Positions 19,104 through 57,626 of a stretch of DNA of 64,000 bases are shown piece after piece (within the stretch, counting starts at the first letter, position 1; every line of letters begins with the position of its first letter). The translations under genes were made by a program, and so were the position numbers. The notes below the pieces were generated by a model. It saw only the letters and a program-made list of their open reading frames with translations, was not told the origin of the DNA and did no database searches. Source of the DNA: an uncultured Isosphaeraceae bacterium (lineage in GTDB: Bacteria; Planctomycetota; GCA-002687715); assembly GCA_964507445.1 (NCBI GenBank), contig CAZDQF010000017.1, positions 28,613 to 92,612 on the forward strand, given 5' to 3'.

Positions 19104-19104
19104 C

Positions 19105-20775
19105 TCAGAGCTTCCGACTACGCTCGAGGATGTCCTCGAGCCTGGCCACGGCCTTGTCCGTGTCCTTGTCCGACAGCTCCAGGATCTCCTGGAGCGCCAC
19201 GCCGATCTGGGGCAGGTAACGGGAGATGAAGTCGCGCTTCTTCATCTCGTCCGCCTCACGACGGCGGCGGGAGAGGAAGGCCCCGAGCTTGCGTCCGCAC
19301 TCGTTGAGGGCGAGGCGGATCTCCTTGATGATCTCCGGGTAGTGCGCCACCGCCTCCTTGCTCTCCGAGGTGAAGGGCACCCAGACGGACGCCACGTGAA
19401 CCAGGACGGTCAACGGGCCAACGGGCAACGCGCCTCGCGACTGCTGCAGGCCGTAGTTCTTCCACGACGTCCCGACAATGGCCTTGTTGATGGCGCAGGC
19501 GCCGGGCTGATACAGCAAGGGCACCCGGTTGGCCAGACGGAGCACCCGGGCCAGGTCGTCCGCGGGGAGGCTCCCCCCCCAGGCGATGCCGGCTTCAACC
19601 ACGAACGGGTTGCCCCGGTAGACCGCGGGCGGACGGGTGACGGCGGTGAAGAAGTCCGCGTCCACTTCCTTCTTGAGCCCTTCCAGGATCAGGTCCTGGC
19701 CCACCGGGACGACGCAATCCGTGGCGGGCGCCATGACCCTCGTCTTCTGGATGGCCTTGTAGAGCAGGTCCGCCTCTCGATTGGCGATGGTCGTGGGGCG
19801 AGCCTTGGGCGAGATCCCCGCCTGTTCGCAGATGGCGTCCGCCACCGCCGCGGACACCCTCGAGAACGTGTCCTGCAGCGCCCCCTTGAGGGTGCGTGCG
19901 CCGCTCTCCTTCATGAGGCGTGCGAGCACCCCCAGCTCCACGCCATGGGGGTGAGGCTTGATCTGCCTGGCGGGTTCCGGGACCACCTTGCAAGCGCGCC
20001 TGAACACCACCAGCTCCTCCCCCGGAGCGCGGTAACTGATGGCGGCGTGGGGGTTGGCCATGGCGGTCTGCTGCAGGTACTCGTCCACGGACTGCCGCCC
20101 CTTCAGGTAGCGACCCTCCAGCTCGATCTCCACCCGGGTCCCCGACCCCTTGCGGAAGCCCTTGGCCTCCCGCTCCCGGGACACCTCCGGACGGTTACGG
20201 GCGGTGTCGATGCGCACGTCCATTCGCACCGCCTTCCCGGTCCTCGAGGTGCGCGTGGTGATGCGCATGGGCTTGCCCGTGGTCAGCTGCCCGTACATCC
20301 CGGCGGCGGAGATGCCGATCCCCTGCTGACCGCGGCTCTGCTTCAGGCTGTGGAACTTGGAACCGTACAGGAGCTTGCCGAAGATCTTCCCCACCTGCGC
20401 CTTGACGATCCCCGGACCGTTGTCCTCCACGGCGACCACGAAGCGGTCGTCCTCACCCTCCACGGGGATGATCTCCACCAGGATGTCCGGCAGGATCTCC
20501 GCCTCCTCACAGGCGTCCACGCTGTTGTCCACCGCCTCCTTGATGGTGGTCAGCAGCGCCTTGCGGGGGTTGTCGAAGCCGAGGAGGTGCCGATTCTTGG
20601 CGAAGAACTCGGACACCGAGATCTCGCGCTGGCCGCGGGCCATGGTCTCCGCCGTGGCCTTGGTGCGCCTCGCCTTGGAGCGGGAAGGGGCCGCGCCGGA
20701 CGAACGCCCGACCGCCTTCTTGCGAGGCCGCTTCTTCGCCGCTGCCTTCTTCTTCCTGCCGCCGCCGACCGCCAT
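19105..20775 (-). CDS. top6B: DNA topoisomerase VI subunit B (GHKL/Bergerat ATPase) with a Lys/Arg-rich N-terminal tail
   Basis: …SEFFAKNRHLLGFD…, the Bergerat-fold ATP-lid VEDNGPGI, …GQQGIGISAA…, and a transducer domain. The N-terminal 45 or so aa are RKKKAAAKKRPRKK. Confidence 0.85.
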   Translation of the reverse strand: MAVGGGRKKKAAAKKRPRKKAVGRSSGAAPSRSKARRTKATAETMARGQREISVSEFFAKNRHLLGFDNPRKALLTTIKEAVDNSVDACEEAEILPDILVEIIPVEGEDDRFVVAVEDNGPGIVKAQVGKIFGKLLYGSKFHSLKQSRGQQGIGISAAGMYGQLTTGKPMRITTRTSRTGKAVRMDVRIDTARNRPEVSREREAKGFRKGSGTRVEIELEGRYLKGRQSVDEYLQQTAMANPHAAISYRAPGEELVVFRRACKVVPEPARQIKPHPHGVELGVLARLMKESGARTLKGALQDTFSRVSAAVADAICEQAGISPKARPTTIANREADLLYKAIQKTRVMAPATDCVVPVGQDLILEGLKKEVDADFFTAVTRPPAVYRGNPFVVEAGIAWGGSLPADDLARVLRLANRVPLLYQPGACAINKAIVGTSWKNYGLQQSRGALPVGPLTVLVHVASVWVPFTSESKEAVAHYPEIIKEIRLALNECGRKLGAFLSRRRREADEMKKRDFISRYLPQIGVALQEILELSDKDTDKAVARLEDILERSRKL

Positions 20776-31723: not shown

Positions 31724-33670
31724 CTACTTCCAGTGGAACCGGGCCCGCTGCTTCACGTGGCAGTCACGGCAGGAGGCGTCCGATTCCGACGGGATCGGCA
31801 CGTCCTGGAGGCGCGAGGCCCCCTCGGTTCCCCGATGGCAATCGGCGCAGTCGGCGTCCACGTGGCCACGACTGCGGTGCGAGAAAGTGTTGGGCTGGGG
31901 CCAGGACCGCATGAGCTCGCCGCCGGTGTAGACCGGGTCCCCTTCCAGGTGACACGCGTCGCAGTCCCCGCCGCCCACGTTGTCATGGTTCTCGTGACAC
32001 GGCGTGCAGGATCTGGCCTCCGCCGTGGTGCCGGGCACACTTGAAGACCGCAGGTCGTCCCCCATGGTGTGGCAGGAGAAGCAACCGTTCTTAAGGCCGG
32101 GCTTGCTGGTGTCCAGGTGCTTGCCGTGGGGGAACTGGTTGACCCCGATCAACCCCGGCAGCCCCGGACGCAGGCCCGCCTCGGGGACGCCGGTGTCATG
32201 ACACTCCGCGCAGGCGGCGTCGCCCGCCGGCCCGCGGTAGATCCCCTTGGTCAATCCCGCCGACGCCTCCCCGGAGACCACGTCGAGGTGACATGACCGG
32301 CACTCGCCGTCCGCCGCCGCGTCCATGGACGAGAGGTGCACGCCGTGCAGGAACGGTCGGTCCGCGAGCTTCGAAGCAAACACCTTGCCGTCGCGATGAC
32401 AGTCCGCGCAATCCTTCCCGCCGGTGTCGAACTCGTGCTGATGGTCCCGCAGGGCCAGGGCGTAGACGTGGGCCCCCACCGTGAGCTCCGCCCGGGCCAG
32501 GCGCTCCACGGTCTTCAATGGAGCCGCGTGCAGGGTCTGGTGGCACTGGGCGCAGCTGACCCCCTGGTCCGCGTCCGCCCCGTGCCACGTCGCCTGCCAG
32601 CGCACCGCCTCCGGCGCCGCCTCCGACCCGTGGCACTCCTGGCAGCGCTCGTACTTGATGCGTTTGAACTCCCGCTCCGGGATGCCCCGCGATGGATCGG
32701 ACGCCTGGGCCACGTCCGCGTACTCGTGGCAGGTCTCACAATCCTCGATCCGCATGGCGCCGGCGCCCTCTCCCATGGCCTCCGCAGACAGGTGCTTGTC
32801 ATGGGGGAAGGTGTCGTAGGTCAGCGCCACCCAGGGGGTGTCGTCACGGGGAGGCACCGGCGCGGTGATCTCCGGGATCAGGTCTCCGTGGCAGTCCACG
32901 CACGTGTCCTCCGCGCGCACGGAGGTCAGGCTCGCCGTGTCCGTGCCGCGATGATCCACGTGACACGGCTGACACGATTGCCCGTCCCAGGAGACGGGGT
33001 GGGTCGGGTTCTCCACGATGTCCGCGTGGCAGGCGCTGCAGGCGGAGGGAGGTGTCCCCACCCAGCCCGAGTGGCACGCCGCGCACGAGCCGTCCCCGTG
33101 CCCCGCCGCCCGGAGCGCCGCCAGCTGCTCCGGCGCGTGGGTCGCCCAGTACCCCGGCGTGTGCACGCGGGCCAGGGAGCCGGGGTTCACCAGGGGCTCC
33201 TCCACGGCGTCCACGAACGACAGGGCGAACAGCGCGCCCACCAGCACCACGGCGGCGTAGTTGCCCCAGCGCAGAGGGCGGAACCGGCCGAACTCCACCT
33301 CGTAGCGAGACCACCGCAGCGGGTCCTCCTTCTTGTCATAGAAGAAGGACTGCTCCTTGAGGGCGCAGGTGAGGGTCCCCTTCTCCTCGTCGATCTCGCA
33401 GGTGAACTTGGAGACCCCGATGACGACGCCGATCTTGCCCTCGCCCTTGATCTCCGTGCGCTCGTCCACGGAGACCCCGGCCATGTAGGTCCCGGACGAG
33501 GTCCCCAGGTCCTCGATGAAGAAGCGGCCGTCTTCGTGGGTGAACGCACAGTGACGTTCCGCGACCATGGGGTCGTCCACCACCAGGTCGCAGGTGGAGC
33601 GTGTCCCCACCACCCCCGCGCGGTTCTCGATGGTGGCGGTCGCGCCTTTCTTCTTCAGGACAATCGCCAC
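31724..33670 (-). CDS. FHA domain - transmembrane helix - multiheme cytochrome c (15 CxxCH) fusion protein
   Basis: N-terminal FHA signature (VGTRSTCDLVVDDPMVAERHCAF…IEDLGTSSGTYMAGV), a TM segment (YAAVVLVGALFALSFV), then 15 CxxCH motifs. The probable start is GTG 33670, 1 nt after the upstream stop; the track ORF begins at GTG 33736. Confidence 0.8.
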   Translation of the reverse strand: MAIVLKKKGATATIENRAGVVGTRSTCDLVVDDPMVAERHCAFTHEDGRFFIEDLGTSSGTYMAGVSVDERTEIKGEGKIGVVIGVSKFTCEIDEEKGTLTCALKEQSFFYDKKEDPLRWSRYEVEFGRFRPLRWGNYAAVVLVGALFALSFVDAVEEPLVNPGSLARVHTPGYWATHAPEQLAALRAAGHGDGSCAACHSGWVGTPPSACSACHADIVENPTHPVSWDGQSCQPCHVDHRGTDTASLTSVRAEDTCVDCHGDLIPEITAPVPPRDDTPWVALTYDTFPHDKHLSAEAMGEGAGAMRIEDCETCHEYADVAQASDPSRGIPEREFKRIKYERCQECHGSEAAPEAVRWQATWHGADADQGVSCAQCHQTLHAAPLKTVERLARAELTVGAHVYALALRDHQHEFDTGGKDCADCHRDGKVFASKLADRPFLHGVHLSSMDAAADGECRSCHLDVVSGEASAGLTKGIYRGPAGDAACAECHDTGVPEAGLRPGLPGLIGVNQFPHGKHLDTSKPGLKNGCFSCHTMGDDLRSSSVPGTTAEARSCTPCHENHDNVGGGDCDACHLEGDPVYTGGELMRSWPQPNTFSHRSRGHVDADCADCHRGTEGASRLQDVPIPSESDASCRDCHVKQRARFHWK

Positions 33671-33671
33671 C

Positions 33672-35147
33672 CTACATCCCCACGATGTCCGCCGGGTCCA
33701 CCCTGGAGATGGCGCTGCACGGACAGTTATAGACACACGCTTCGAACGGCAGGCCCGCGCACAGGTCGCACTTGATGGCCTTCTTGTCGGGCTTCTTGGG
33801 TTTCTTGGGCTTCTCCGCCTCCTCCGAAGCCGCCTCCGGTTCCTGCGCCGGTGTCCCCTTGGAGCGCTTGATGAAGGGCAGCATGCGGGAGAAGAATGAG
33901 CGCCGCTCCTTCTCTTCGCCGCCGGGCTCCGTCAGGGTGGCCATGCGGATGACGCCGTAGGGGCACTTGATCTCGCACGCCATGCATCCGGTGCAGTTGG
34001 GCAGGATGAAGTGGATGGCGCCGTTGACGTCACGGCGGATGGCGCCGTAGTTGCAACCGATCATGCACTCGGGGACCGTGCAGTTGTAGCAGGCGCTGGT
34101 GAGCATGACGTCGCCGGTCTTGATGCCACGCTTGGACAACCGGGGGACACCGTCCTCGTGGACCGAGACGCAGGCCTCCACGCAGGCGTTGCATCGGGTG
34201 CAGCGCTTGAGATCGATGAGCAGGGCCTCCCCTCCCTTCACCGCCTCCTTGCCCACCATGAGGTCCATGGCCGCGGTCCTGGACAGGTCCACCACAGGCG
34301 CCGGGTCGTTCTTCACCTCCTGCCCCTGCTCCTGGGCCAGCAGCAATCCCACGGTCTGCTGGATGCGGGTCCCCGCCTGCACGTCGCGCTTGTACAGGGC
34401 CAGGAAGACCTCTCGGCGCAGCCGCACAACGTCCACCCGGGTCATGGCCACCATGCTGGATGGCCAGGTCTTGTCATCCGCCAGGGACCGCTCACCGAAG
34501 GAGGAGTTGTCCCGCAGGAACGCCACCACCTTGGAGCCCTCCGGCGTGGCCCGCTCTTCCTTGACGATGCCGCTGCGGACCAGATAGACGGCGTCCGCCT
34601 CCTTGCCCTCTTCTGCGATGGCCTTGCCCTCGGCGAACGTCAGCAGCTCCGCGTCCTCCGCCACGGCGGCGAGGACGTGACGATCAACGCCCTTGAACAC
34701 CGGCGCCGACCTCAGGTGGACCGCGAGGGCCCGCTCCCGGTATCGCTCGTCGATCAGGTCCCTGAACGACCCGCCGCCCTTGTAGAGGGTCTTGAACAGC
34801 GGCGCCCCCACCACCATCAGGGTGCAGTGGGCCTCCGCCTTCACGGTGCTGAACTGAGGCTGGTTGGCCAGGGCCGTCATCTCTCCGAACCAGTCATGGA
34901 CCCCGTGGGAACCCATGTTCTCGACGCTGCCGTCCGACTCCGTCCGGTAGGCGGTGGCGATGCCGTCCAACACCACGAACAGCTCTTCCAGGAACTCCCC
35001 CTGCCGGACCAGGGTGTCCCCTGGCATGGCTCGGCGAAACTCCACCTCGCTCTCAGCCGCAGCCATGGCCTTCGGCTTCACCTTGCCGAACAACGGGACC
35101 TGCGTCAGCAGGGCCTTGAGTTCTCCAAACTGCGCAGCGCCGCTCAT
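33672..35147 (-). CDS. Cytoplasmic protein with two cyclic-nucleotide-binding (cNMP) domains and C-terminal multi-cluster 4Fe-4S ferredoxin domains
   Basis: cNMP signatures (…WFGEMTAL…, …FGERSL…); Cys motifs CTRCNACVEAC, CYNCTVPECMIGC, CTGCMACEIKCP and CDLCAGLPFEACVYNCPC; no signal peptide. Confidence 0.8.
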   Translation of the reverse strand: MSGAAQFGELKALLTQVPLFGKVKPKAMAAAESEVEFRRAMPGDTLVRQGEFLEELFVVLDGIATAYRTESDGSVENMGSHGVHDWFGEMTALANQPQFSTVKAEAHCTLMVVGAPLFKTLYKGGGSFRDLIDERYRERALAVHLRSAPVFKGVDRHVLAAVAEDAELLTFAEGKAIAEEGKEADAVYLVRSGIVKEERATPEGSKVVAFLRDNSSFGERSLADDKTWPSSMVAMTRVDVVRLRREVFLALYKRDVQAGTRIQQTVGLLLAQEQGQEVKNDPAPVVDLSRTAAMDLMVGKEAVKGGEALLIDLKRCTRCNACVEACVSVHEDGVPRLSKRGIKTGDVMLTSACYNCTVPECMIGCNYGAIRRDVNGAIHFILPNCTGCMACEIKCPYGVIRMATLTEPGGEEKERRSFFSRMLPFIKRSKGTPAQEPEAASEEAEKPKKPKKPDKKAIKCDLCAGLPFEACVYNCPCSAISRVDPADIVGM

Positions 35148-35149
35148 GA

Positions 35150-36160
35150 TCAGTACCAGATCACCGAGACCGTGTGGACGATGGCGAAGCCGAGCAGCAA
35201 CAACGAGCAGGGCACGTGGACGACGCGCCAGACGTTGATGCTGAACTTGACCCGGGCAGCGGCGGCCAGGTCATCGAGGATCCGGCGTCGCTGGGAGACC
35301 AGCACCATGACATCTTGCAGATCCTGCCGCCCCTCAGGCGCCTCCTCCATCATGCTCATGAGAGCGGTGCGGTGCACCAGGGCCCGGGTCGTCGCCTTCC
35401 CCGCCCCCTTGAGCCGCTTCACCTCGTGCGCGTCCAGCCCATCGTAGGCTTCCCGGATCTTGGCCTTCAGGCTCCGCTCCAGCACGAAGGCCTGCTCGTG
35501 GTTCATGTCGCGCTCCGCGCGGGTCATCCAACGCGGGCCCAGGGCGAACAACACCGTACCGACGACGCCGGTGACGATGACCAGCACGGCCAGCCCGTTG
35601 AGGATCACCCCCATGGGCGAGACCATGGAGAACCCTCCGTGGACCCACAAGGTGACGCCGGAAGCCAGACCCAGGTAGACGTGGAAGTGGAGCCACCTGG
35701 ACATGCGCCCGAGGGGTTCCGTGGGCTCCACCCCGACGATGAACGCCGGTCCACCGACCGCTCCCGGAGTGACCTTGGCCTTACAGATCCGATCGGCCCC
35801 GTGAGCCGCCAACTCCCGCTGCGCCATCTCCCTGATCTCGGCGGCGTTGTTCAGCAACCCCAGGAGCACCCGGCGTCGGATGTCGTTCAGGCCTTGCTCC
35901 GCCTGCTCCAGCTGCTCCAGGGGCACCTTCAGCTTGAACTCGGGCGAGATCCCCAGGCGATGCATGAACTTGCGCAGAGAGTAGACGCAAACCGCCACCA
36001 TGATCCCCAACGTGGTCCACCCACTGGCGAGCACGATGTCCACGTCGGAGCCTTCCCGGGCCCCCGCAGCGCTCCCAGCGGCCGCCAACCACCAGACGAA
36101 CCCGCCTGACACGATGACGGCGACCACGGACCACCAGCTCCTGAACAGGGAGACGTTCAC
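35150..36160 (-). CDS. 5-TM integral membrane protein with conserved intramembrane histidines (possible b-type haem or quinone-interacting subunit)
   Basis: TM helices containing WLHFHVYLG…WVHGG and RVVHVPCSLLLLGFAIVHTV. It overlaps the upstream gene by 4 nt and sits 2 nt from the downstream gene. Confidence 0.55.
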   Translation of the reverse strand: MNVSLFRSWWSVVAVIVSGGFVWWLAAAGSAAGAREGSDVDIVLASGWTTLGIMVAVCVYSLRKFMHRLGISPEFKLKVPLEQLEQAEQGLNDIRRRVLLGLLNNAAEIREMAQRELAAHGADRICKAKVTPGAVGGPAFIVGVEPTEPLGRMSRWLHFHVYLGLASGVTLWVHGGFSMVSPMGVILNGLAVLVIVTGVVGTVLFALGPRWMTRAERDMNHEQAFVLERSLKAKIREAYDGLDAHEVKRLKGAGKATTRALVHRTALMSMMEEAPEGRQDLQDVMVLVSQRRRILDDLAAAARVKFSINVWRVVHVPCSLLLLGFAIVHTVSVIWY

Positions 36161-38193
36161 CGGCGTCTCCCAGGGAAGCCATCGAGCTCGCCGCCGAGCG
36201 ATTCAGCGATCCGCCTCCACTCCGGACGCGTCTTCCCCGAACCGGTGAGCCCCTTCTCGATCAGCTCGTGCCAGTGGCAGTCCGCACAACCTTCCGGGTC
36301 GCTCCGGGACGCCTGCCGCGCGCCCCTGTGATAGCCGTTGCGCTCGTACTTCATGTCCGCATGGACCAGCACGTCCTCCCGGACGTTGAACACGGCCGCG
36401 CCGGGCAGGTGGCAGGTGCCGCACTTCTGTTCCGCCGGATAGGGGTGCCACTGAGCCCCGGCGACGCCCGTCACCCGGACCCGGAAATCGCTCACCGCGA
36501 CGTCCGCCTCGGGGCCGTCAGGGCCGTGGCAACGGGCGCAGGACTGGACGTAGTCCCTCCCCTTGTCCGCGCAGATCTCCGGACGCTCGCCGTGGTCGTG
36601 GCACGCCGAGCAGTCCATGGCGCCGGGCAGGGTCCCGACCCCTGGCGCCCCTCCCTGCGCCGGCACGTGGCAGGACACGCAACCGTCCTCGAGGAGCGGG
36701 TCTCTCAACGCCTTCGCCGTCATGTGGACGTCGTGGGGGAACGTCGGCACCCTGCGAGGAGCCACCGTCTCCTCGCTCCGGATCACGCTCAGCTCGCCGC
36801 CCTTGTGACACTCTCCGCACGCCTTGTCGGAGTAGAGGCTCAGGTCCTCGGGCCGGGTCGACCCCGTGATGTCGCCGTGGCAGGCCACACAGTCCTGGTT
36901 GGTGGGGTTCGGCGGCAGGTGGGTGTCATGAGAGAACGCCTTGCCGCTGATACGAGAGGGCAGCCCGCCCTCGATCCTGGCCCGATGGCACTTGCGACAG
37001 TCTTCCCCCTGCACCAGCTTCCCGCCCCGGCGGGTGATCATGGGGTGGTCGTGGCTGGTCACGGCGAACCCCACCGGCCGGGTCCGCGACACCTCCACCT
37101 GGGGGCGGAGAGTCTTCATGGGGCCGTCGCCGAAGGCGTGGCACGGCGCGCAGCTCTCCACCTTGCCGTGGTCGTCGATTCCCTGGGCGTCCCGCACCGC
37201 CAGCGGGTTGTCCTCGAGGCGGTCGTGGCATTCCGCGCAGGCGCTGTAACGGCGCTCCCGGAACTTGCTCTGCAGCCCGTAGGTGCGGCCTTCCTCCGCC
37301 GGCTCGTGGCAGGCGAGGCACCCCTTGGAGCGCAACGCCGGGTCCTTGTTCAGCGCATCCGCGTCCATGTGAGGACCGTGGGGGAAGGTCCCCAACAGGA
37401 CACACTCGTGAGCAGCGCGTTCCAGCTGCTCGGGCCCCAGCAGTCCCTCCCCCGACCGGTCCTTGTGACAGTCGGCGCAAGAGTCCAGCTTCACCATGGA
37501 GGGGCCGATGGCGGCGCCTGGGTCCGTGAGGAGATCGCCGTGGCATGTCCCGCACGCCGCCGCGTCCGCGCCGCTGCCCGCGGGCAGGTGCTCATCGTGG
37601 CGAAACGCCGCGGGCCGAGGGCCCGTCGCCTTGCCGAGGTAGGCGTTCAGTCCATCGACGAATTCGACGTTCTTCGTCCCCGACGGGTCGGCGTCGATGG
37701 CGTTCGCACCCTCCGGATCGTGACACTCGAAGCAGGTGTGCCACCCGGGCCGGAACTTGATGTCACCGCGCCTGCCCAGATCATCCGGGCGTCCGGAAGC
37801 CCCCTCGTGGCATCGCTTGCAGTCGTAGGCCGCATGGGACCAGTGCCTGAACGGACGCCCGTCAGCGCGGAGCACGTCCAGGTCTTCCAGGAACGACGGA
37901 CTCGTGTCCTCTCGGTCGAGCTCCAGGGCTGGGGCGCCTCCGCCGCTGCTGTGGCAGGCGTCGCACACCTGCTGCGGGTCCCGGGTCTCGGTCTCGCTCT
38001 TGTAGAGATGGCAGCCCCGACAATCCCTGGCGTATTCGCTGCCGCCCTCCTGGCGCCAGCCCGCACGGACGTGGTCCGCGTGTCGAAACGGCTTGCTGGT
38101 CGACGGCGGCGAGTCGCTCCGCTCGTTGGAGGACGGCACCATCAGGACGAGCTGGGCGGTGGTCACAACCGCCAGGGCCAGAGACCGTCCCAT
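36157..38193 (-). CDS. Secreted multiheme cytochrome c (17 CxxCH)
   Basis: ATG at 38193 precedes a signal peptide (MGRSLALAVVTTAQLVLMVP); 17 CxxCH motifs. The start lies 2 nt after the stop of the tandem-FHA gene. Confidence 0.8.
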   Translation of the reverse strand: MGRSLALAVVTTAQLVLMVPSSNERSDSPPSTSKPFRHADHVRAGWRQEGGSEYARDCRGCHLYKSETETRDPQQVCDACHSSGGGAPALELDREDTSPSFLEDLDVLRADGRPFRHWSHAAYDCKRCHEGASGRPDDLGRRGDIKFRPGWHTCFECHDPEGANAIDADPSGTKNVEFVDGLNAYLGKATGPRPAAFRHDEHLPAGSGADAAACGTCHGDLLTDPGAAIGPSMVKLDSCADCHKDRSGEGLLGPEQLERAAHECVLLGTFPHGPHMDADALNKDPALRSKGCLACHEPAEEGRTYGLQSKFRERRYSACAECHDRLEDNPLAVRDAQGIDDHGKVESCAPCHAFGDGPMKTLRPQVEVSRTRPVGFAVTSHDHPMITRRGGKLVQGEDCRKCHRARIEGGLPSRISGKAFSHDTHLPPNPTNQDCVACHGDITGSTRPEDLSLYSDKACGECHKGGELSVIRSEETVAPRRVPTFPHDVHMTAKALRDPLLEDGCVSCHVPAQGGAPGVGTLPGAMDCSACHDHGERPEICADKGRDYVQSCARCHGPDGPEADVAVSDFRVRVTGVAGAQWHPYPAEQKCGTCHLPGAAVFNVREDVLVHADMKYERNGYHRGARQASRSDPEGCADCHWHELIEKGLTGSGKTRPEWRRIAESLGGELDGFPGRRR

Positions 38194-38195
38194 GG

Positions 38196-39707
38196 TCACG
38201 CGCCGATCCCCAGCACCGCCGGGAACCAGAAGAACAGCACCACGAGGACGACGAGTAGAAGCGCGAGCGCCACGACCGCGACCTTCAGCCCTGCGCCGCC
38301 ACCGCTCTGCTGCCGCATGACGCTCAGGAACGGAGCCTTCGCCATGGCATCGCACCACTGAGCCACCGTCACCCGACCCGACAACAGCAGCGCCTCGCCC
38401 GGGTGCTCCGAATCCGATGCCGCCTCTGCGCTCACCCGCTTCATGGCCGACGCGCTCACCACGTCCTCCGCCGAGAGGATCTCCAACGCATCATGCCAAC
38501 TCTGAACGGAGACGCGGTTCCCGCCGCTGCCCACGTCCGCGACCCAGAGCGCGTCCACGGTTCCGAACCGGACATGGGTGTCCGGATGGAGCTCTCGAGG
38601 CTGATCCGGCATCACCCGATCGGGACCCAAGAACGTGCCGTTGCGGCTGTCCAGATCGTGCAGGAAGAACCGCCCACCCTGGAACCGGATCCGGGCGTGG
38701 GTCGAGGAGACCGCGTCGTGAGACAACCGGCAATGGACACCCTTCTCCTGGTCGTCACTCCTCCCCACCACGACGTTGGGGCCGGAGATATCAAACCGGG
38801 TTCGGATGGCCTCCGTGGCGATGATCAACCGGGCGTTCGCAACCCGGAACGCCGCCATCTCCGCCAGCCCCGCCGCAGCACCCGCCTCCGCCAGCGCTTG
38901 ACCGACGCCATGAGCGAACACGGTCCGCGGTTCGGACGGGGCCGGGCGAGGCTCCTCCGCTTCCGCCTCCTTGGCCGCCGCTTCCTTCGCCGCAGCTTCC
39001 TTGGCCGCCGCCTCCTTGGCCGCCGCCTCCTTGGCCGCCGCCTCCTTGGCCGCCGCTTCCTTGGCCGCCGCTTCCTTGGCCGCCGCCTCCTTGGCCGCAG
39101 CTTCCTTGGCCGCAGCTTCCTTGGCCGCAGCTTCCTTGGCCGCCGCTTCCTTGGCCGCCGCTTCCTTCGCCGCCGCTTCCTTCGCTGCCGCTTCCTTCGC
39201 CGCCGCTTCCTTCGCCGCCGCTTCCTTGGCCGCCGCTTCCTTGGCCGCCGCTTCCCTGGCCTTCTCTGCTTCGAGGCTCCGGATCTTCTCTGCCGCCAAC
39301 CTCGCCTGTTCGGCCGCCGCTCGCGCCTGCTCAGCGACCGCACCGGGCAGCGTGCTCTGCTCGGCGAAGGCGAGCTCCGCTGCGCTGCCCGTCCCCTCCT
39401 GAGGCCCACCCGACACGACGATCGTGGTTCGGCCGATGGTGAGAGTCAGCCCACAGCGGATGGGGTAGGACTCGCCATCGCTGAGGATGGGGCCGGACTC
39501 AATGAGGGTCTTGTTCGTGCTACCACAATCCAGAATCGCGAGGCCACCGTCGACGCCCTCGGCGAACTTGGCGTGAAACGCCGACGCCTTCGCATCATCA
39601 AGAACGAGGTCGTTGCTCGGATGACGTCCTACTCGAAGACCGGCGTGACACGGGACGGTCCTCGGTGCCTTGTCGGGCTCCTCAACCCGCAATTCCCACT
39701 TGCTCAT
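38196..39707 (-). CDS. Tail-anchored protein with two FHA domains separated by an (A/E)AAKE pentapeptide-repeat spacer
   Basis: N-terminal FHA (LRVGRHPSNDLVLDDAKASAFHA…ILDCGSTNKT) and C-terminal FHA (VVVGRSDDQ…VSSTHARIRF…LHDLDSRNGTF); about 21 copies of KEAAA; a C-terminal TM helix (VAVVALALLLVVLVVLFFWF). Confidence 0.8.
   Translation of the reverse strand: MSKWELRVEEPDKAPRTVPCHAGLRVGRHPSNDLVLDDAKASAFHAKFAEGVDGGLAILDCGSTNKTLIESGPILSDGESYPIRCGLTLTIGRTTIVVSGGPQEGTGSAAELAFAEQSTLPGAVAEQARAAAEQARLAAEKIRSLEAEKAREAAAKEAAAKEAAAKEAAAKEAAAKEAAAKEAAAKEAAAKEAAAKEAAAKEAAAKEAAAKEAAAKEAAAKEAAAKEAAAKEAAAKEAAAKEAAAKEAEAEEPRPAPSEPRTVFAHGVGQALAEAGAAAGLAEMAAFRVANARLIIATEAIRTRFDISGPNVVVGRSDDQEKGVHCRLSHDAVSSTHARIRFQGGRFFLHDLDSRNGTFLGPDRVMPDQPRELHPDTHVRFGTVDALWVADVGSGGNRVSVQSWHDALEILSAEDVVSASAMKRVSAEAASDSEHPGEALLLSGRVTVAQWCDAMAKAPFLSVMRQQSGGGAGLKVAVVALALLLVVLVVLFFWFPAVLGIGA
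38942..39260. repeat. About 21 copies of a 15-bp tandem repeat (gccgccgcttccttg and variants) encoding the (KEAAA)n spacer
   Basis: Read from the sequence (39001-39240 is almost pure repeat); coding, in frame. Confidence 0.8.
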
Positions 39708-39757: not shown

Positions 39758-43618
<3,861 letters not shown>

Positions 43619-43630: not shown

Positions 43631-45556
43631 CTACCAGGTGAACGTGAGCTCAGCGAACGCGTGCCACAGCAGATCGTCGCTCTCGTAGATCTTCCGCAAC
43701 CCACCGCCGGGCCTGAGCACAGAGCCACCGAAGGTGAAGATGATGTTGTTGGTCAACAGCGGCCGGTACTGGACCCCCATGAGGGCCTCCACGCCGATGT
43801 CACGGGGGATCTCCTCCAGCTCCACCAACGTCTCCAGCGGGTTGGTGGTGGCGAAGCGCAGCCCCTGAATCGCGGCCGTCATCTTCACCGTCGGGGTGAG
43901 CTCGATGTCCGTGCCGATGCCGTAGATGGCGATGCCCGGATTGACGAACGCCGCCTGCCCCTCGAACTTGGACGCCTGCAGGTCCGCCAGCGGGCTCAGC
44001 CTGTTGGTCAGGAAGGTCCCGAACAGGGGCACCGCCTGACGGTTCCAGTAGGAGAACTCGCCGCCGGCGAAGTTGGGAGCGTCCACGATGGCGTCGAATC
44101 CGCCGCCCTTGCCGTCTCGCGCGTCGTGGTCGCCAGACCCGTAGAACACGTAGGCCTTGAGCCGGAACCAGTCCCAGTCATAGGAGACCTCCACGGCCGC
44201 CAGCTGCGCGTCGATGTCGATCTCCCGCGCGGCGATGGGGTCTTCCGTGTCGTGCCCCCAGACCTGGTAGACGGCCCCCGTGAGGTTGAAGCGTCCGATG
44301 TGGCCGTCGAACGCCCACCCCAGGTAGTAGGTGTCGATCTCGTGCTCCTGGAAGCTCCCGATGGGGGTCGGTCGCGTCAGGAAGTCGTTGTCGTTGAAGT
44401 GGACCCCGCCGCCGTCGTGGCTCCAATGGAACGACAGCTCCTGATTGAATCCCTTGAAGGGGAAGTCGAAGCGGTAGACGTTGGCGATCAGCACCTCCTG
44501 GTTGCGATCATCGAACGTGTTGAGCTCCGAGTTGGTGTTCTTCTCCAGCAGGTGGAAGTAGGCCAGGTTGTACTGCCACTTGTTGTCGTCCGCGTTGCCG
44601 AAGATCCGGGCGCCCAGATTCACGTCGTCAAAGATGAAGCCTCGGAAGTCACTCCGAAACTCGAGGATCCCCGCCTCGAAAGACAAGAAGTCGTAGCGGT
44701 CGTTCCAGTCCAGCAGGTGGATCTCGATGAACGCTTCTTCCAGCGCGATGTCGTCGGTCAGGCGATCCGTGCCCTGCCCGGGGTTGATGTTGACCCCGCC
44801 GGTCTCTTCCAGGTTCAGGTAGGTGACGTTGGCGGCGAGGACCGCCTTCAACCGCCAGTCCACGGGCTTGAAGAACTGCTGGCCCTTGAAGATGTCGATC
44901 TCCAGGGCGGTGATGTTCAGGAGGAAGTCCTGGTTCCCGTCACCGAAGAAGGGCTCGTTGTTGGGAACGGGGCCGGTGTTCCCGGTGCCGATGGGCACCT
45001 TGCGCGTCTCCAGGATGGAGAAGCTCTCCAGCTCCAGGGAGAGGAACACGTCATCGCCGATGATGGGGTAGTCCCCCTTCAGCGTGTTCAGGTTGTACGG
45101 GTCGAGGGAGCTCTTCCCCTTGTTGATCACGTAGGCGGGGTTGAACAGGGGGACCGGGTCAATGGCCCAGCGATCAGGCATGGGCTCGAAGTGACGCGGC
45201 TTCTCCTGGGGAGCGGTCACCGGCTTGCTCTCGGCGACGGTCACCGGCTTGCTCTCGGCGACGGCCACCGGCTTGCTCTCGGCGACGGCCACCAGCTTGC
45301 TCTCGGCGACGGCCACCGGCTTGCTCTCGGCGACGGCCACCGGCTTGCTCTCGGCGACGGCCACCGGCTTGCTCGACGCCACCGGACGGTCAACCGCCAC
45401 GGGGTCCGACCCAACCCGCGAGCCCACCATGGTCGGCTCAGGATGCGGAGGGTCCTCCGGCGGGGGCCGGTGCCCAGCGCTGGAGCAGGCCGCAACCAAC
45501 AACACGCAACCCCCAAGGCACGACCGCCCCAGGAATCTCCGCGAGCTTGTATCCAT
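43631..45556 (-). CDS. Putative outer-membrane beta-barrel (porin-like) lipoprotein with an N-terminal (ESKPVAVA)n repeat
   Basis: Lipobox LLVAAC; a G/D/N/aromatic-rich body with alternating hydrophobics; C-terminal …AFAELTFTW-COOH, the aromatic terminus typical of OMPs. It ends 12 nt upstream of the lipoprotein cytochrome gene. Confidence 0.6.
   Translation of the reverse strand: MDTSSRRFLGRSCLGGCVLLVAACSSAGHRPPPEDPPHPEPTMVGSRVGSDPVAVDRPVASSKPVAVAESKPVAVAESKPVAVAESKLVAVAESKPVAVAESKPVTVAESKPVTAPQEKPRHFEPMPDRWAIDPVPLFNPAYVINKGKSSLDPYNLNTLKGDYPIIGDDVFLSLELESFSILETRKVPIGTGNTGPVPNNEPFFGDGNQDFLLNITALEIDIFKGQQFFKPVDWRLKAVLAANVTYLNLEETGGVNINPGQGTDRLTDDIALEEAFIEIHLLDWNDRYDFLSFEAGILEFRSDFRGFIFDDVNLGARIFGNADDNKWQYNLAYFHLLEKNTNSELNTFDDRNQEVLIANVYRFDFPFKGFNQELSFHWSHDGGGVHFNDNDFLTRPTPIGSFQEHEIDTYYLGWAFDGHIGRFNLTGAVYQVWGHDTEDPIAAREIDIDAQLAAVEVSYDWDWFRLKAYVFYGSGDHDARDGKGGGFDAIVDAPNFAGGEFSYWNRQAVPLFGTFLTNRLSPLADLQASKFEGQAAFVNPGIAIYGIGTDIELTPTVKMTAAIQGLRFATTNPLETLVELEEIPRDIGVEALMGVQYRPLLTNNIIFTFGGSVLRPGGGLRKIYESDDLLWHAFAELTFTW
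45205..45394. repeat. About 7 copies of a 24-bp tandem repeat (ctcggcgacggccaccggcttgct) encoding ESKPVAVA
   Basis: Read from the sequence; coding, in frame. Confidence 0.75.
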
Positions 45557-55059: not shown

Positions 55060-55980
55060 GTGAGCTTGGACTTCAGTCGCTATCTGTCACCCGCCGGAGA
55101 TCCGGCGGGGAATCGGACGACCTCCATGGTCGCTCCGGCACGTCTGCGATCCGTCCAGGAGCTGGTCCGCCGCCTGCCACCGCTCCCCGGCATGATGTTC
55201 GAGTTGATCACCGAGCTGGGGGAACCGGACGCCGAGATCGACCGGCTGGAAGATCACATCTCCCGCGACCCCACCCTGACCACCCGCTTGCTGAAGATGG
55301 CCAACAGCGCCTTCTTCGCGCCGGCCGTACCCGTGGCCACCGTCGGCCACGCCCTCATGATCCTCGGGCTGGACGCCGCCCGAAACCTGGTCCTCGCCAC
55401 CGCCATGAGGGCCGCCATGGGCGCTTCACGATCCTCGCCGACGCACCAGGGAAGAGAGGTCTTCCGCCACAGCCTCGCCGTCGCCATCGCAGCCCGTCGA
55501 CTGTGCCGACTGCGAGACACCCGTGACCCGCACGAACCCGACCCGTTCGTAGCGGGCCTGCTCCACGATGTCGGCCTGGTAGCCCTCGCGCCGCTCTACG
55601 CCAACGAGGCGGGCGTCCTGGAATCCGCCGGAGGGCTCTCACCGGAGGTGGAACGGAGCGTCCTGGGGATTGACCACGTCCTCGCGGGACGCATGGTGCA
55701 CGCCCACTGGAAACTCCCCGACTCCCTGCTGGACCCGATCCTCGGCCACCACTCCGATCCACGAGACCTGGATGGAGGGTCCACCACCACCATCGTCGCC
55801 CTGGCCGACGCCCACGCGGAGGCCACGGGATGGGAGCCTCACCCGGCCACGAACCGTCACGGCGCCCTGGAGCGGCGAGACGCCATCATCGCCCACGTCG
55901 GTCTCGAACCGGACCGAGTCCATGACGTCCTCGACGGCATGGAGCAGGAGTTCGCCAGCTTCCTGGGGTCCGCGTCATGA
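55060..55980 (+). CDS. HDOD-domain signalling protein
   Basis: …DPTLTTRLLKMANSAFF… and GLLHDVG are characteristic of HDOD. Confidence 0.75.
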   Translation: MSLDFSRYLSPAGDPAGNRTTSMVAPARLRSVQELVRRLPPLPGMMFELITELGEPDAEIDRLEDHISRDPTLTTRLLKMANSAFFAPAVPVATVGHALMILGLDAARNLVLATAMRAAMGASRSSPTHQGREVFRHSLAVAIAARRLCRLRDTRDPHEPDPFVAGLLHDVGLVALAPLYANEAGVLESAGGLSPEVERSVLGIDHVLAGRMVHAHWKLPDSLLDPILGHHSDPRDLDGGSTTTIVALADAHAEATGWEPHPATNRHGALERRDAIIAHVGLEPDRVHDVLDGMEQEFASFLGSAS

Positions 55981-57626
55981 GCTCCGCCGCGGCCCAAGGG
56001 GGCATCGAGGGGGTCCGGGAGCTCTATCTCTCCCTCAACCCGGAGGAGGCTTATCAACGCCTGCGAGAGCTGGCGCCTCAGCTGCTCGGGGCTGAGATTC
56101 GGGGCGCGTACATGGCCGACGAGTCCCGCGGGTTCGTCCTGGACAAGGCGTTCGGCGTCACCGCCGCGCCGCGGACATGGCACCCCACCCGCGATCCCCT
56201 TCCCAGCTCTCTGGACGGGATCATCTTCCGCTACAAGGGGCGGCCCCTGGGCGCGGTTGTCGTAGATATGGCGGCGAGCGTGGATACGTCCGCCGCGCAG
56301 CAGTCCCTGGAGTGGCACTTCGCGCCGGTGCTGTTCCGCACCAGCTGGCTCAACGAGGCCATCGATGAAGTCGCCCAAGCCCGCGACCAGGTGCGCTTCC
56401 TCCTCGAGATGGGCGGCCTGTTGGGTCGCATCGACCTGGAGCCATTGCTCATCAACGTGCTGGAGCTGCTCAGCGACTTCCTGGACGTGCCCATCGGCGC
56501 GGTGGTGCTCCAGGAGGGGGACGAGGAGCCGAGCCTGGCCGTCGACTGGGGCCTCCCCATGACCGTGCTCGAAGGCATCCGAACCAGCTCGGGCACGGAC
56601 CTGCTGCGGTTCGCCCGAGAGCACCAGGAAGCCCACATCTTCACGGACGCGGAGCTGAGCGTGCGAGCAGGTGCGAGATCGCCGGACCGGCTGCTCGTCA
56701 TGCCCCTGGTCTCCAGCACGGGCTACATCGGGACCATCGTCCTGGCGTCCGGCGCCCCCGGCACGCGCCTCTCGGAGGACCTCCTGCACATCGTGGAGCC
56801 GGCGGTCAAGCTGGCGGCCACGGCCATCGAGAACGCCCGCCTGTTCGCCATCAAGCTGCAGCACGAGAAGGAGCAGCAGCAGCTGGCGCTGGCGCGCCGC
56901 ATCCAGGCGGGGCTGCTGCCCAGCACGCCGCCGGAAGTTGACGGCGTCCAGCTGGCGGCCACGTCCGTCTCCGCCAACATGATCGGCGGCGACTACTTCG
57001 ACTACTTCACCCTCCCGGACGGGTCCCTCGGATTGGCCGTGGCGGACGTCGCCGGGAAGGGGATCCCCGCAGGGCTCATCATGACCGCGGCGCGGGCCAT
57101 GTTCCGGACCGCCGCCCTGCAACACGCCAGCCCGGCCGCCATCCTGGACTGCGTCAACCGGAACCTCGCGGAGGAGGAGTTCAGCAACCGGTTCGTCACC
57201 GCCGTGTTCGCCCGCCTGGACCTGCGCTCCGGGGCGTGCACCGTCGCCTGCGCCGGACACGAACCGGCCATGGTGCGTCGCGCCGACGGCGCCATCGAGA
57301 GGGTCGGCGGACCGGCCCTCCCCCTCGGCGTCATGAACGACGCTCGCTACAAGGACCACCAGGTCCACGTCGCGCCGGGGGATGTGCTCGTGCTGTTCAC
57401 GGATGGCGTCACGGAAGCCATGAACGGCGACCGCCAGCAGTTCGGGGTGGAGCGGCTGGAGACGTTGCTCGCCGACGGGCTGCAGGAGGCGGAGGCCGTC
57501 CGGGATCAGATCCTGGCGGACATCTCGGACCACGTGGGATCGAGCCCCCGCCATGACGACACCACCCTGATCGTGGCCAGCATCGTCCCGCCGGACGGGC
57601 GCGGCGCCCTCCTCGAAGCACCGTGA
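55977..57626 (+). CDS. GAF-domain(s) + PP2C/SpoIIE-type Ser/Thr phosphatase (RsbU-like)
   Basis: …SANMIGGDYFDYF…, VADVAGKGIPAG, FTDGVTEA; its start overlaps the HDOD stop (ATGA). Confidence 0.8.
   Translation: MSSAAAQGGIEGVRELYLSLNPEEAYQRLRELAPQLLGAEIRGAYMADESRGFVLDKAFGVTAAPRTWHPTRDPLPSSLDGIIFRYKGRPLGAVVVDMAASVDTSAAQQSLEWHFAPVLFRTSWLNEAIDEVAQARDQVRFLLEMGGLLGRIDLEPLLINVLELLSDFLDVPIGAVVLQEGDEEPSLAVDWGLPMTVLEGIRTSSGTDLLRFAREHQEAHIFTDAELSVRAGARSPDRLLVMPLVSSTGYIGTIVLASGAPGTRLSEDLLHIVEPAVKLAATAIENARLFAIKLQHEKEQQQLALARRIQAGLLPSTPPEVDGVQLAATSVSANMIGGDYFDYFTLPDGSLGLAVADVAGKGIPAGLIMTAARAMFRTAALQHASPAAILDCVNRNLAEEEFSNRFVTAVFARLDLRSGACTVACAGHEPAMVRRADGAIERVGGPALPLGVMNDARYKDHQVHVAPGDVLVLFTDGVTEAMNGDRQQFGVERLETLLADGLQEAEAVRDQILADISDHVGSSPRHDDTTLIVASIVPPDGRGALLEAP

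Follow-up and report, generated by a model that had tools for sequence, protein, structure and literature searches.

Gene, Protein, and Genomic Module

The window, the entire 64,000-nucleotide stretch of planctomycetal DNA analyzed here, encodes on its reverse strand a 503-residue protein with two FHA domains. As seen in Table 1, the order within this protein is FHA1, an Ala/Glu/Lys helix, FHA2, a small helical domain, and a C-terminal membrane helix; an identical 503-aa protein is on record at NCBI, from a 110,646-bp contig. The gene headed the same module in all seven loci examined (L001, L003, L004, L008, and L089 to L091; 29 to 100% identity), where it was followed by genes for a multiheme cytochrome, an unannotated membrane protein, a cNMP-binding 4Fe-4S protein, and a second cytochrome, often fused to an FHA domain. 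The membrane protein matched no Pfam or NCBIfam family. The cNMP/4Fe-4S protein, in which hydropathy revealed no transmembrane (TM) segment, was kept in six of these loci (L001, L004, L008, and L089 to L091), and L003 ends before its position. In the FHA-cytochrome fusion, the TM helix lies at aa 160 to 178 of the extended open reading frame (ORF). The module thus holds three FHA domains, two on the tail-anchored protein and a third joined across the membrane to a 15-heme cytochrome. In distant loci, genes for an FHA-GAF-cyclase and a cNMP phosphodiesterase are also present. A literature search found no publication on this FHA-cytochrome cluster.

The ATG of the 17-CXXCH cytochrome lies 2 nucleotides past the stop codon of the double-FHA gene, and an alternative GTG overlaps that stop codon as GTGA. 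A preliminary description of this DNA had called the two genes translationally coupled; the tight adjacency and the 17 heme motifs held, but the coupling itself was drawn solely from the 2-nucleotide gap, and the spacing at orthologous loci varies from a 1-nucleotide overlap to an 86-nucleotide gap. A sigma-70 promoter scan of the operon returned no promoters, and terminator-like sites occurred there at a frequency near the shuffle expectation. Neither a Ser/Thr kinase nor a PP2C phosphatase was found in the operon, and the sole candidate in the window is a GAF-SpoIIE phosphatase 16 kb away.

Table 1. Positions in the window of the double-FHA gene, its parts, and neighboring genes
Feature	Positions	Strand	Basis or remark
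Double-FHA tail-anchored protein gene, 503 aa	38196..39707	-	ORF list, ATG start, Pfam FHA x2
FHA1, aa 25-92	39432..39635	-	PF00498, 40.6 bits, E 3.6e-10
Candidate phospho-acceptor T119, EQS-T119-LPGA	39339..39362	-	T-[LIVM] motif, statistically defined; QETVPGA in P0004
Degenerate Ala/Glu/Gln/Arg-rich helix start, aa 122-155	39243..39344	-	AF2 helix from aa 122
18 perfect KEAAA units, aa 156-245	38973..39242	-	Unit table; predicted single alpha-helix, ~13.5 nm
Second T-[LIVM] motif, EPR-T262-VFAHGVG, just past helix	38901..38933	-	Motif enrichment; alignment A1
FHA2, aa 312-382	38562..38774	-	PF00498, 57.6 bits, E 1.7e-15
Conserved helical C-terminal domain, aa ~398-465	38313..38516	-	Invariant columns; motif HPGExLLLxGxITVxQWxDA
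C-terminal transmembrane helix (tail anchor), aa ~476-498	38214..38282	-	Hydropathy, AF2 helix
678-aa cytochrome c, 17 CXXCH, signal/anchor N-terminus	36157..38193	-	Directly downstream in 7/7 loci
336-aa membrane protein, 4-5 TM helices with intrahelical His	35150..36160	-	In all loci examined
491-aa protein, two cNMP-binding domains and 4Fe-4S clusters	33672..35147	-	Pfam cNMP_binding E 2.4e-35, Fer4 families
648-aa FHA-cytochrome fusion: FHA at the N-terminus, single TM helix, 15 CXXCH	31724..33670	-	Pfam FHA E 6.3e-12
1286-aa lipoprotein-type cytochrome, 10 CXXCH, LVIVD beta-propeller repeats	39758..43618	-	Upstream also in L003, L008
641-aa predicted lipoprotein, outer-membrane-barrel-like C-terminus, (ESKPVAVA)n array at 45214-45374	43631..45556	-	

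Both FHA domains announced in the preliminary description were recovered by HMM search; scanned separately, each scored above the PF00498 cut-off of 20.7 bits. The canonical phospho-threonine (pThr)-binding pattern (G-R, S-x-x-H, S-x-N-x-T) is intact in both, with G27-R28, S42, H45, S63, N65, and T67 in FHA1 (S63-x-N65-K-T67) and G315-R316, S334, H337, S354, N356, and T358 in FHA2 (S354-x-N356-G-T358). In an alignment of 213 FHA domains, the pThr-binding columns were at least 93% conserved among the domains covering each column, except for T67 of FHA1 (86%) and T358 of FHA2 (89%). The AF2 model of FHA2 had a mean pLDDT of 94 and matched the FHA domains of GarA, OdhI, and MDC1 in Foldseek, with target-normalized TM-scores of 0.8 to 0.88; FHA1 was modeled with its strands present and a pLDDT of 74 to 86 across most of the domain. 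FHA1 and FHA2 are predicted phospho-threonine readers.

Hydropathy also bore out the C-terminal membrane anchor claimed previously, with a peak at aa 476 to 494 (mean Kyte-Doolittle value, 3.28) and high values until aa ~502 of 503, which leaves just a few residues beyond the helix. The N-terminus is hydrophilic, without a signal peptide, so the protein has the layout of a tail-anchored protein, that is, a single TM helix no more than about 30 residues from the C-terminus and no N-terminal signal. Therefore, its soluble portion is expected to lie entirely on the cytoplasmic side. Each of the 88 family representatives with the C-terminal domain likewise has a hydrophobic segment at its C-terminus. 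AF2 modeled this domain as four helices at high pLDDT, and no Pfam match was found in any of 24 members. The five best PDB matches of its family profile were the N-termini of MshE (5htl; E, 0.0015) and of four PilB proteins (E, 0.0018 to 0.01), in an alignment spanning tandem LLxxGxIT half-motifs. The domain may thus weakly and remotely resemble MshEN/T2SSE_N; however, its register differs from the R-L-G motif of MshEN (R-H-x-G), and c-di-GMP binding is not inferable from this likeness.

The KEAAA Array and Its Copy Number

TRF delimited a 15-bp array at positions 38963 to 39261, with 19.9 copies, 94% matches, and a score of 486. The preliminary description had counted about 21 KEAAA units; the array is real, but the count is about 20, that is, 18 perfect units and 2 imperfect ones, REAAA before and KEAEA after them. 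Six DNA variants of the unit were observed, differing at synonymous third positions only. The 4 to 5 sites at which the 18 units vary are without exception synonymous, although synonymous opportunities make up just 24% (P, ~0.004 to 0.0009). The coding of KEAAA by the array is thus no chance product, and because every variant site is synonymous, the peptide appears constrained; we propose that its sequence is maintained by purifying selection. Adjacent units identical in DNA occur at units 2-3, 6-7, 8-10, 12-13, and 14-16. We also propose that the array arose via a recent in-frame expansion of the 15-bp unit within an older Ala/Glu/Lys-rich helix.

The whole Ala/Glu/Lys helix spans aa ~122 to 250 and would be about 17 to 19 nm long. 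A continuous helix was modeled by AF2 at aa 122 to 232; the full-protein model was built from 3 sequences, has a mean pLDDT of 56, and loses helix confidence past aa ~226. Within the array, E(i)-K(i+4) pairs occupy all 17 possible positions, the net charge is 0, and large hydrophobic residues (L, I, V, M, F, W, Y) are absent. There is no heptad periodicity, and the hydrophobic moment is zero whether computed at 100 or at 102.9 degrees per residue. The array therefore combines what defines a single alpha-helix (SAH), namely, a long helix, dense opposite-charge pairs at i to i+4, and no hydrophobic seam. These predictions agree with the long single alpha-helix proposed earlier and suggest that the spacer is stiff and uncharged on average. 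Long Ala-rich helices may bend or self-associate.

Could the Ala/Lys/Glu segment instead be a coiled-coil oligomerization domain or a histone-H1-like nucleic-acid-binding domain? We consider this highly improbable. A GCN4 zipper has a hydrophobic moment of 1.3 to 1.5 at the heptad and helical angles, against zero for the array, and the coiled-coil reading was rejected on this value and on periodicity. The histone-like reading draws on a relative, P0108, with a basic AAAKK repeat and on compositional matches below threshold: with HC2 (PF07382), the whole protein scored 39.7 bits (cut-off, 40), and with NCBIfam histone-H1-like models, it scored 43 bits (cut-off, 80). However, the HC2 score drops to 34.6 bits on the linker alone, NF038052 scored 22.7 against 135, and the array has no net charge; histone H1-like HC2 was accordingly rejected.

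The preliminary description had predicted an unstable copy number, and the other assemblies of the same strain speak for it. All 22 contigs examined from these assemblies stop within the array, 12 entering from the 3' side and 10 from the 5' side, and in 21 of them the flanks carry 0 to 1 mismatches across the 4 to 10.8 kb compared (the flank of L002 is not comparable beyond a scaffold misjoin). Comparison of copy number among them gave a divided result, since the contigs match the window in the outer 11 (5') and 6 (3') units but disagree among assemblies on the middle of the array. The central join of the window (GGGC AGGC AGGC GGGC) was reproduced by none of the 22 contigs. L098 and L099 point to an array one unit shorter, and other contigs to longer or different middles; one contig covers 14.9 units and is still inside the array. 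The disagreement on the middle suggests either length polymorphism or misassembly, and the exact number and order of units in the window are provisional. In the window, k-mers of the array are unique at k of at least 45, the longest internal exact repeat being 44 nucleotides; therefore, short reads could suffice to resolve a single allele. A neighboring 24-bp array had 6, 7, or 9 copies among the contigs that do cross it, which suggests real polymorphism. Overall, the KEAAA array is probably length-polymorphic.

A Family with Hypervariable Linkers

The double-FHA family has no name and is fairly widespread. A phmmer search of 1.84 billion representatives gave 250 matches below 1e-10, among which 88 have the C-terminal domain together with the C-terminal hydrophobic helix and 63 are full length including FHA1; at a 50% identity level, the family thus comprises 88 clusters or more. 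A word-indexed search with the repeat removed from the query had returned 3 proteins, a false impression of rarity that the exhaustive phmmer search corrected. When metagenome contigs were scanned with the family alignment, only generic FHA proteins and no orthologues were found, since one of the patterns used was that of the generic FHA loop. A search for natural KEAAA arrays with the array and its flanks as the query gave 1078 candidates, none with an E value of 0.001 or less, for which the composition correction of HMMER is probably responsible. The literature found on EAAAK/KEAAA repeats concerned engineered linkers, and natural proteins were not found in it.

Among the 63 full-length members, the linker between the FHA domains ranges 16-fold, from 22 to 352 aa (median, 116), and is mostly rich in proline and polar residues and probably disordered. 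A perfect repeat occurs in the lineage of the window only, whose linker has a self-match of 0.59 at its best period of 15 residues (three KEAAA units); all others reach 0.31 or less. In the closest marine relative, a 15-bp periodicity is present in degenerate form (60% match). Linkers rich in Ala, Glu, and Lys recur in P0005, P0017, P0078, and P0108, and Pro-rich linkers in P0004, P0007, and P0054. In P0004, a close orthologue with the same operon context, the linker consists of 96 Pro/Lys/Glu-rich residues. Taken as a conserved element that defines length, the ruler-like spacer of the preliminary description is not supported by this variation, and the spacer is better regarded as a tether peculiar to its lineage.

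The linkers share a short motif. T[LIVM] occurred 187 times in the 63 linkers, against 71 +/- 7.6 in shuffles (about 15 standard deviations above), and was present in 61 of the 63 members; S[LIVM], sought in the same linkers, was not enriched over shuffles. The helix of the window protein has one such threonine on each side (Table 1), and T262 and F264 are invariant in alignment A1 (TVFAHG, TIFGGN, TIFAGN).

Origin of the Array and Putative Function

Several explanations of the array have to be weighed against each other. That the number of copies, or the assembled array itself, results from collapse, expansion, or a wrong join is a serious possibility, though one we hold to be somewhat less probable than its opposite. 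The ending of every examined same-strain contig inside the repeat, the central join unique to the window, and the shorter version in L098 and L099 would all be expected from such an error. That the array exists is certain, however, with 11 5'-units and 6 3'-units independently confirmed and one contig reading through 14.9 units without leaving it; a single allele could be assembled from short reads, and the neighboring array, which is crossed by contigs, varies as well. Neutral replication slippage in a permissive linker, leaving a helix that merely connects the two halves, is an unlikely but plausible origin. The hypervariable linkers of the family, the runs of identical neighboring units typical of recent slippage, and two further in-frame tandem arrays in the window, one of them length-polymorphic, fit with neutral slippage, whereas exclusively synonymous variation and the independent recurrence of Ala/Glu/Lys-rich helical linkers in four relatives argue against it.

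A molecular ruler, in which (KEAAA)n would set a precise distance of about 14 to 19 nm from FHA1 to the membrane-proximal FHA2 and C-terminal domain, with copy number as the means of tuning, appears decidedly improbable. The predicted stiffness, the apparent purifying selection on the amino acid sequence of the unit, and a 15-bp repeat that alters length in frame would suit such a device. Nevertheless, a distance of this kind is hard to reconcile with linkers of such different lengths and probable flexibility across the family, with the Pro/Lys/Glu-rich linker of P0004 in the same operon context, and with the several array lengths hinted at by assemblies of one population.

The reading we prefer, to which we give about an even chance, is that the protein is a membrane-tethered phospho-Thr adaptor, encoded by the first gene of a planctomycetal cytochrome module, in which the helix is a spacer and not a ruler conserved across the family. 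FHA2 and the C-terminal domain would lie against the cytochrome/FeS complex on its membrane face, with FHA1 held outward by the linker. A Ser/Thr kinase encoded outside the operon might phosphorylate the Thr motifs flanking the helix, T119 and T262, and possibly also sites on partner proteins. Contacts between FHA domains and pThr, in cis or in trans, could then lead to switching, recruitment, or clustering of the complex, comparable to the Rv1747 module, while the stiff helix with its (KEAAA)18 core would keep the two FHA-motif pairs apart.

The regulatory module of Rv1747, an ABC transporter of M. tuberculosis, has two FHA domains and a disordered linker of about 100 aa with the PknF sites T152 and T210; phosphorylation of the linker threonines by the STPK leads to FHA-pThr compaction, oligomerization, and phase separation or clustering (PMC8339232). 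Both proteins carry two FHA domains in one membrane-attached chain and a linker of at least 100 aa with Thr motifs, and their FHA domains are related in sequence (6ccd, E of 3.6e-07; 6cah, E of 1.2e-06). In contrast to Rv1747, the double-FHA protein lacks ABC NBD/TMD domains and stands alone as a tail-anchored protein that also has an MshEN-like domain. It has no cognate STPK in its operon and no Pkinase in the window, its linker is mostly a predicted rigid helix rather than disordered, and its genomic partner is a multiheme cytochrome/FeS module.

Other FHA proteins offer partial likenesses. The mycobacterial proteins FhaA (Rv0020c) and FhaB/FipA (Rv0019c) are bacterial FHA adaptors that bind the pThr of membrane proteins, and the FHA domain of FhaA (3po8/3oun) is a close structural and sequence match. 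FhaA also carries a long low-complexity linker. Nevertheless, each has a single FHA domain and a cell-wall context, FhaB is anchored N-terminally, and the NCBIfam FhaB model gave the double-FHA protein 77 bits against a cut-off of 125. The T6SS Fha/TagH and T3SS YscD proteins resemble it in that an FHA domain forms a scaffold on the cytoplasmic side of a machine spanning the envelope. Both assignments were rejected: TIGR03354 (TagH/Fha) scored 79.7 bits against 120.25, with no T6SS genes in the window, and PF16697 (YscD) exceeded its cut-off (49.7 against 33.2 bits) only as a whole-protein sum, the halves scoring 29.6 and 24.2 bits. No secretion-system genes were found in the window. The MshEN/T2SSE_N likeness of the C-terminal domain is limited by its E values (0.0015 to 0.01), by the lack of a Pfam match, and by the shifted motif.

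For the spacer, membrane anchors and distal binding domains are linked by an Ala/Lys/Glu helix in TolA domain II and by (Glu-Pro)/(Lys-Pro) rods in the Pro-rich spacer of TonB. Both styles occur among the orthologues, TolA-like in the window protein and TonB-like in P0004, P0007, and P0054; the TolA and TonB spacers, however, cross the periplasm, whereas the double-FHA spacer is predicted to be cytoplasmic, and there is no sequence homology. Read in a shifted register, the KEAAA array corresponds to (EAAAK)n, with a ladder of E(i)-K(i+4) salt bridges among alanines. Engineered (EAAAK)n linkers usually have 2 to 5 units, against about 18 to 20 here. In protein engineering, (EAAAK)n is listed as a rigid helical linker (PMC7039005). 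Natural SAHs are described as monomeric helices stabilized by salt bridges (PMC5347031, PMC12203971). The E/K/R-rich ones of myosin VI/X and drebrin are much more charged and less Ala-rich than the array.

A more far-reaching interpretation, which we regard as rather unlikely, is a new regulatory layer on a trans-membrane multiheme-cytochrome/FeS electron conduit in Planctomycetota. Through the three cytoplasmic FHA domains and the cNMP-binding ferredoxin, Ser/Thr phosphorylation and cyclic nucleotides would govern electron flow or the clustering of the complex. The length-polymorphic (EAAAK)n helix, in turn, would adjust how far the scaffold reaches, or its valency, from cell to cell within a population.

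For metagenome assembly, the breaking of 22 of 22 contigs in the array calls for caution, with the middle of the sole crossing contig, that of the window, to be treated as provisional. The array would represent a natural (EAAAK)n helix, apparently maintained by selection and about four times the usual engineered length, and may serve as a natural test case for the stiffness and usefulness of such helices in vivo. Control of respiratory or extracellular electron transfer by phospho-Thr and cyclic nucleotides is essentially unexplored, and the double-FHA family may provide a testable entry to it.

Domain architecture and family of the double-FHA protein

The preliminary description had claimed an open reading frame with two FHA domains and a C-terminal membrane anchor, and both claims held. 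Scanned on their own, FHA1 (residues 25 to 92; 40.6 bits) and FHA2 (residues 312 to 382; 57.6 bits) each exceeded the Pfam cut-off of 20.7 bits, and the canonical phosphothreonine (pThr)-binding residues are kept in both. An AlphaFold model of residues 286 to 503, built on a 24-sequence family alignment, had a mean pLDDT of 94, and the modelled FHA2 matched solved FHA domains with a target-normalised TM-score of up to 0.88. The hydropathy maximum falls at residues 476 to 494 (3.28), with few residues beyond this helix, and the N terminus is hydrophilic; the protein is predicted to be tail-anchored, and its soluble part should be cytoplasmic. The downstream cytochrome, with 17 CXXCH motifs, begins either at an ATG 2 nt past the stop codon or at a GTG overlapping the stop as GTGA.

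No Pfam or NCBIfam model names this family, and the best NCBIfam matches of the protein lie below cut-off (TagH, 79.7 bits versus 120; FhaB, 77 versus 125). A first, word-indexed search returned three relatives only, and an exhaustive phmmer search with residues 251 to 503 against 1.84 billion representatives gave 250 proteins below 1e-10. Among the matches listed, 88 combined the conserved C-terminal domain with a hydrophobic helix at the C terminus, and 63 of these were full length with an N-terminal FHA1. The most conserved part, between FHA2 and the membrane (residues ~398 to 465), carries the motif HPGExLLLxGxITVxQWxDA and has no Pfam match. The five best PDB matches to its profile were MshEN/T2SSE_N N termini, from MshE (5htl) and four PilB proteins (E, 0.0015 to 0.01), an apparent likeness that we take as a lead and not as membership.

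Features of the double-FHA locus, its module and other parts of the window (window coordinates unless a locus is named)
Feature	Position	Strand	Remarks
Double-FHA protein gene	38196-39707	-	503 aa, ATG start
15-bp array	38963-39261		Tandem Repeats Finder (TRF)
Perfect KEAAA units	38973-39242	-	18 units, aa 156-245, by translation
T119 motif EQSTLPGA	~39351	-	immediately before KEAAA helix
T262 motif EPRTVFAHG	~38922	-	immediately after KEAAA helix
Module gene 1			multihaem cytochrome, ~650-730 aa, directly after double-FHA gene
Module gene 2	35150-36160	-	polytopic membrane protein, ~325-353 aa, no family assignment
Module gene 3	33672-35147	-	soluble, ~473-512 aa, two cNMP-binding domains and 4Fe-4S clusters
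Module gene 4	31724-33670	-	second multihaem cytochrome, ~650-740 aa
Upstream LVIVD-repeat cytochrome lipoprotein			1286 aa, 10 CXXCH motifs
Upstream 641-aa protein	43631-45556	-	outer-membrane-barrel-like C terminus
(ESKPVAVA)n array	45214-45374	-	in frame, 24-bp unit, 6.7 TRF copies, inside 641-aa protein gene
FHA-GAF-adenylate/guanylate cyclase	L089 7160-9863; L090 29-2694; L091 7554-9512		divergently transcribed; class-II cNMP phosphodiesterase beside it in L089 and L090
HDOD-domain protein, then GAF-SpoIIE (PP2C-type) phosphatase	55060-57626	+	16 kb from FHA operon
Topoisomerase VI subunit A homologue	17697-19103	-	
33-bp tandem repeat	18976-19070	-	2.7 copies, 96% match, inside subunit A homologue gene
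Topoisomerase VI subunit A and B homologues	17697-20775	-	adjoining

The KEAAA array and its copy number

The KEAAA array, previously put at roughly 21 units, is present with a count of about 20: TRF reported 19.9 copies (94% matches; score, 486), and the perfect units are preceded by REAAA and followed by KEAEA. Six DNA variants occur among the 18 perfect units, differing at four third-codon positions only. With 11 of the 45 possible single-base changes in the 15-bp unit being synonymous, the probability that four to five independent changes would all be synonymous is ~0.004 to 0.0009, and the peptide sequence therefore looks constrained beyond periodicity alone.

A continuous helix was predicted by AlphaFold for residues 122 to 232 from a shallow alignment, with pLDDT values of 59 to 84 up to about residue 220. 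As E(i)-K(i+4) pairs fill 17 of 17 possible positions at a net charge of 0, the array has the features expected of a salt-bridge-stabilised single alpha-helix. A coiled coil is unlikely, because the residues L, I, V, M, F, W, and Y are all missing from the array and its hydrophobic moment is zero whether taken at 100 or at 102.9 degrees per residue, compared with 1.3 to 1.5 for the GCN4 zipper. A basic histone-like tail is likewise made unlikely by the net charge, and the HC2 and histone-H1-like matches were sub-threshold and compositional. The single helix would have a counterpart in the (EAAAK)n linkers, counted among the rigid helical linkers of protein engineering (PMC7039005), which are the same repeat in another register. 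With a rise of 0.15 nm per residue, lengths of ~13.5 nm for the perfect array and ~19 nm for the whole Ala/Glu/Lys/Arg-rich segment (residues 122 to 250) are expected. Being 90 residues long, the 18 units complete precisely 25 turns of an ideal helix with 3.6 residues per turn, and each of the 18 multiples of 20 degrees is occupied by one lysine azimuth; with the copy number uncertain, this match is probably a coincidence.

The longest exact repeat inside the array as assembled is 44 nt, and k-mers are all unique at k ≥ 45; therefore, a single allele should be resolvable from short reads. All 22 same-strain contigs read (L001, L002, and L092 to L111), which represent at least ten sample assemblies of JGI and ENA, terminate within the array, 12 reaching it from the 3' side and 10 from the 5' side, and the window contig is the sole contig read that crosses it. 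The flanks of 21 of the 22 differ from the window by 0 to 1 mismatches over the 4 to 10.8 kb compared, L002 having been left out past a scaffold misjoin. Agreement with the window extends inward over 11 units from the 5' end of the array and over 6 from its 3' end, with divergence beyond, and the window's central join is absent from all 22. Two contigs (L098 and L099) imply an array shorter by one unit, eight have a common middle differing from that of the window, and several imply longer alleles. Co-existing alleles would explain, through a branching assembly graph, why assemblers stop here; errors at contig tips are also visible among these contigs. As to an assembly artefact, the existence of the array and a length of about 15 units or more are secure, whereas the window's middle is not reproduced and its exact unit count is provisional.

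A second array of the same operon, which follows closely behind the lipobox of the 641-aa protein, is short enough to be crossed by contigs. The window and six same-strain contigs carry 7 ESKPVAVA units, L102 and L109 carry 9, and L107 carries 6. Together with the disagreement over the middle of the KEAAA array, this supports the earlier view of a copy-number-prone repeat, although variation in KEAAA length within the population is a plausible reading and not a proven one. A third in-frame repeat of the window lies within about 130 nt of the start of the gene for the topoisomerase VI subunit A homologue. Topoisomerase VI is characteristic of archaea and plants; here, homologues of its subunits A and B lie side by side in a planctomycete genome.

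Linker variation across the family

Linkers of the 63 full-length members range from 22 to 352 aa (median, 116) and are mostly Pro/polar-rich. At its best-scoring period (15 residues, or three KEAAA units), the window protein had a self-match of 0.59, and all others reached at most 0.31. The closest relative (P0005; 50 to 53% identical) has a degenerate ADKAA/AEKAA-like linker, with a weak 15-bp periodicity (60%) in its DNA, and the close orthologue P0004, 43% identical overall and with the same operon arrangement around its gene, has a linker of only 96 aa with a PKPKPEPKPE stretch; in other members the linker is of the AEKAA/EAEEKAAK, AAAKK, long mixed-helix, or poly-Pro type. The perfect array is therefore recent and lineage-specific, the outcome of homogenisation or expansion inside an Ala/Glu/Lys helix of greater age. 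With linkers this varied, the family taken together has no need of a defined spacer length; this speaks against a conserved ruler and weakens that part of the preliminary description; its observations were confirmed, and its interpretation was supported in part.

The linkers, otherwise unalignable, share a strongly enriched motif, [DE]-rich-[AGP]-T-[VLI]-x-[GAP][GAP], with acidic residues upstream of T[LIVM] and G/A/P at +3/+4. The 63 linkers contain T[LIVM] 187 times, versus 71 ± 7.6 when shuffled with composition preserved, and 61 members have it; S[LIVM] showed no such enrichment in the same linkers.

A conserved cytochrome module and its putative adaptor

In all seven loci compared (29 to 100% identity to the window protein), the gene order after the double-FHA gene is alike, the last two genes being checkable in six since one contig (L003) stops after the membrane protein, at an AAA-ATPase gene. 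The membrane protein and the cNMP-FeS protein are conserved at every module locus long enough to show both. The window's 336-aa membrane protein has no Pfam or NCBIfam family, and His residues within its transmembrane helices are possible haem-b ligands. The second cytochrome, in the window as at several other loci, has an N-terminal FHA domain, one transmembrane helix, and then 15 CXXCH motifs (FHA part recorded as Pfam FHA in L001 and L004 and as Yop-YscD_cpl only in L091), an arrangement predicted to connect a cytoplasmic pThr reader across the membrane with a cytochrome in the periplasm. Between 45556 and 31724, seven genes run in one direction, with spacing from a 4-nt overlap to 50 nt.

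Three distant, short-linker versions of the module (L089 to L091) carry the FHA-GAF-cyclase, beside which a class-II cNMP phosphodiesterase is found in two (L089 and L090), suggesting that a cyclic-nucleotide circuit feeds the cNMP-binding FeS protein there; neither gene is in the window. The window itself is planctomycetal, encoding PSCyt1/2, PSD1, and DUF1501 proteins, and the MAG titles of relatives concur. No Ser/Thr kinase was found within the 64 kb, and the HDOD and GAF-SpoIIE genes were the only Ser/Thr-phosphorylation-related pair.

From these features, we infer that the window protein serves the cytochrome/FeS module as an adaptor that is tethered to the membrane and depends on pThr. 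The membrane would be the site of FHA2 and the MshEN-like domain, with FHA1 held outward by the linker, and phosphorylated linker Thr motifs, or phosphorylated partner proteins, could make FHA-pThr contacts in cis or in trans. Speculatively, with the two FHA-motif pairs separated by a rigid 17- to 19-nm helix, as in this lineage, closure in cis would be disfavoured and contacts in trans, of the clustering type, favoured. The best-documented analogue is Rv1747, in which two FHA domains are joined by a ~100-aa disordered linker with PknF sites T152 and T210 and phosphorylation leads to compaction, oligomerisation, and phase separation (PMC8339232). The window protein is a variant within a known class, that of FHA adaptors whose linker is of low complexity. 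Its interest lies in a naturally occurring (EAAAK)n helix of some 18 units and in its membership of an unnamed family that links multihaem cytochrome complexes to signalling by FHA, cNMP, and possibly c-di-GMP.
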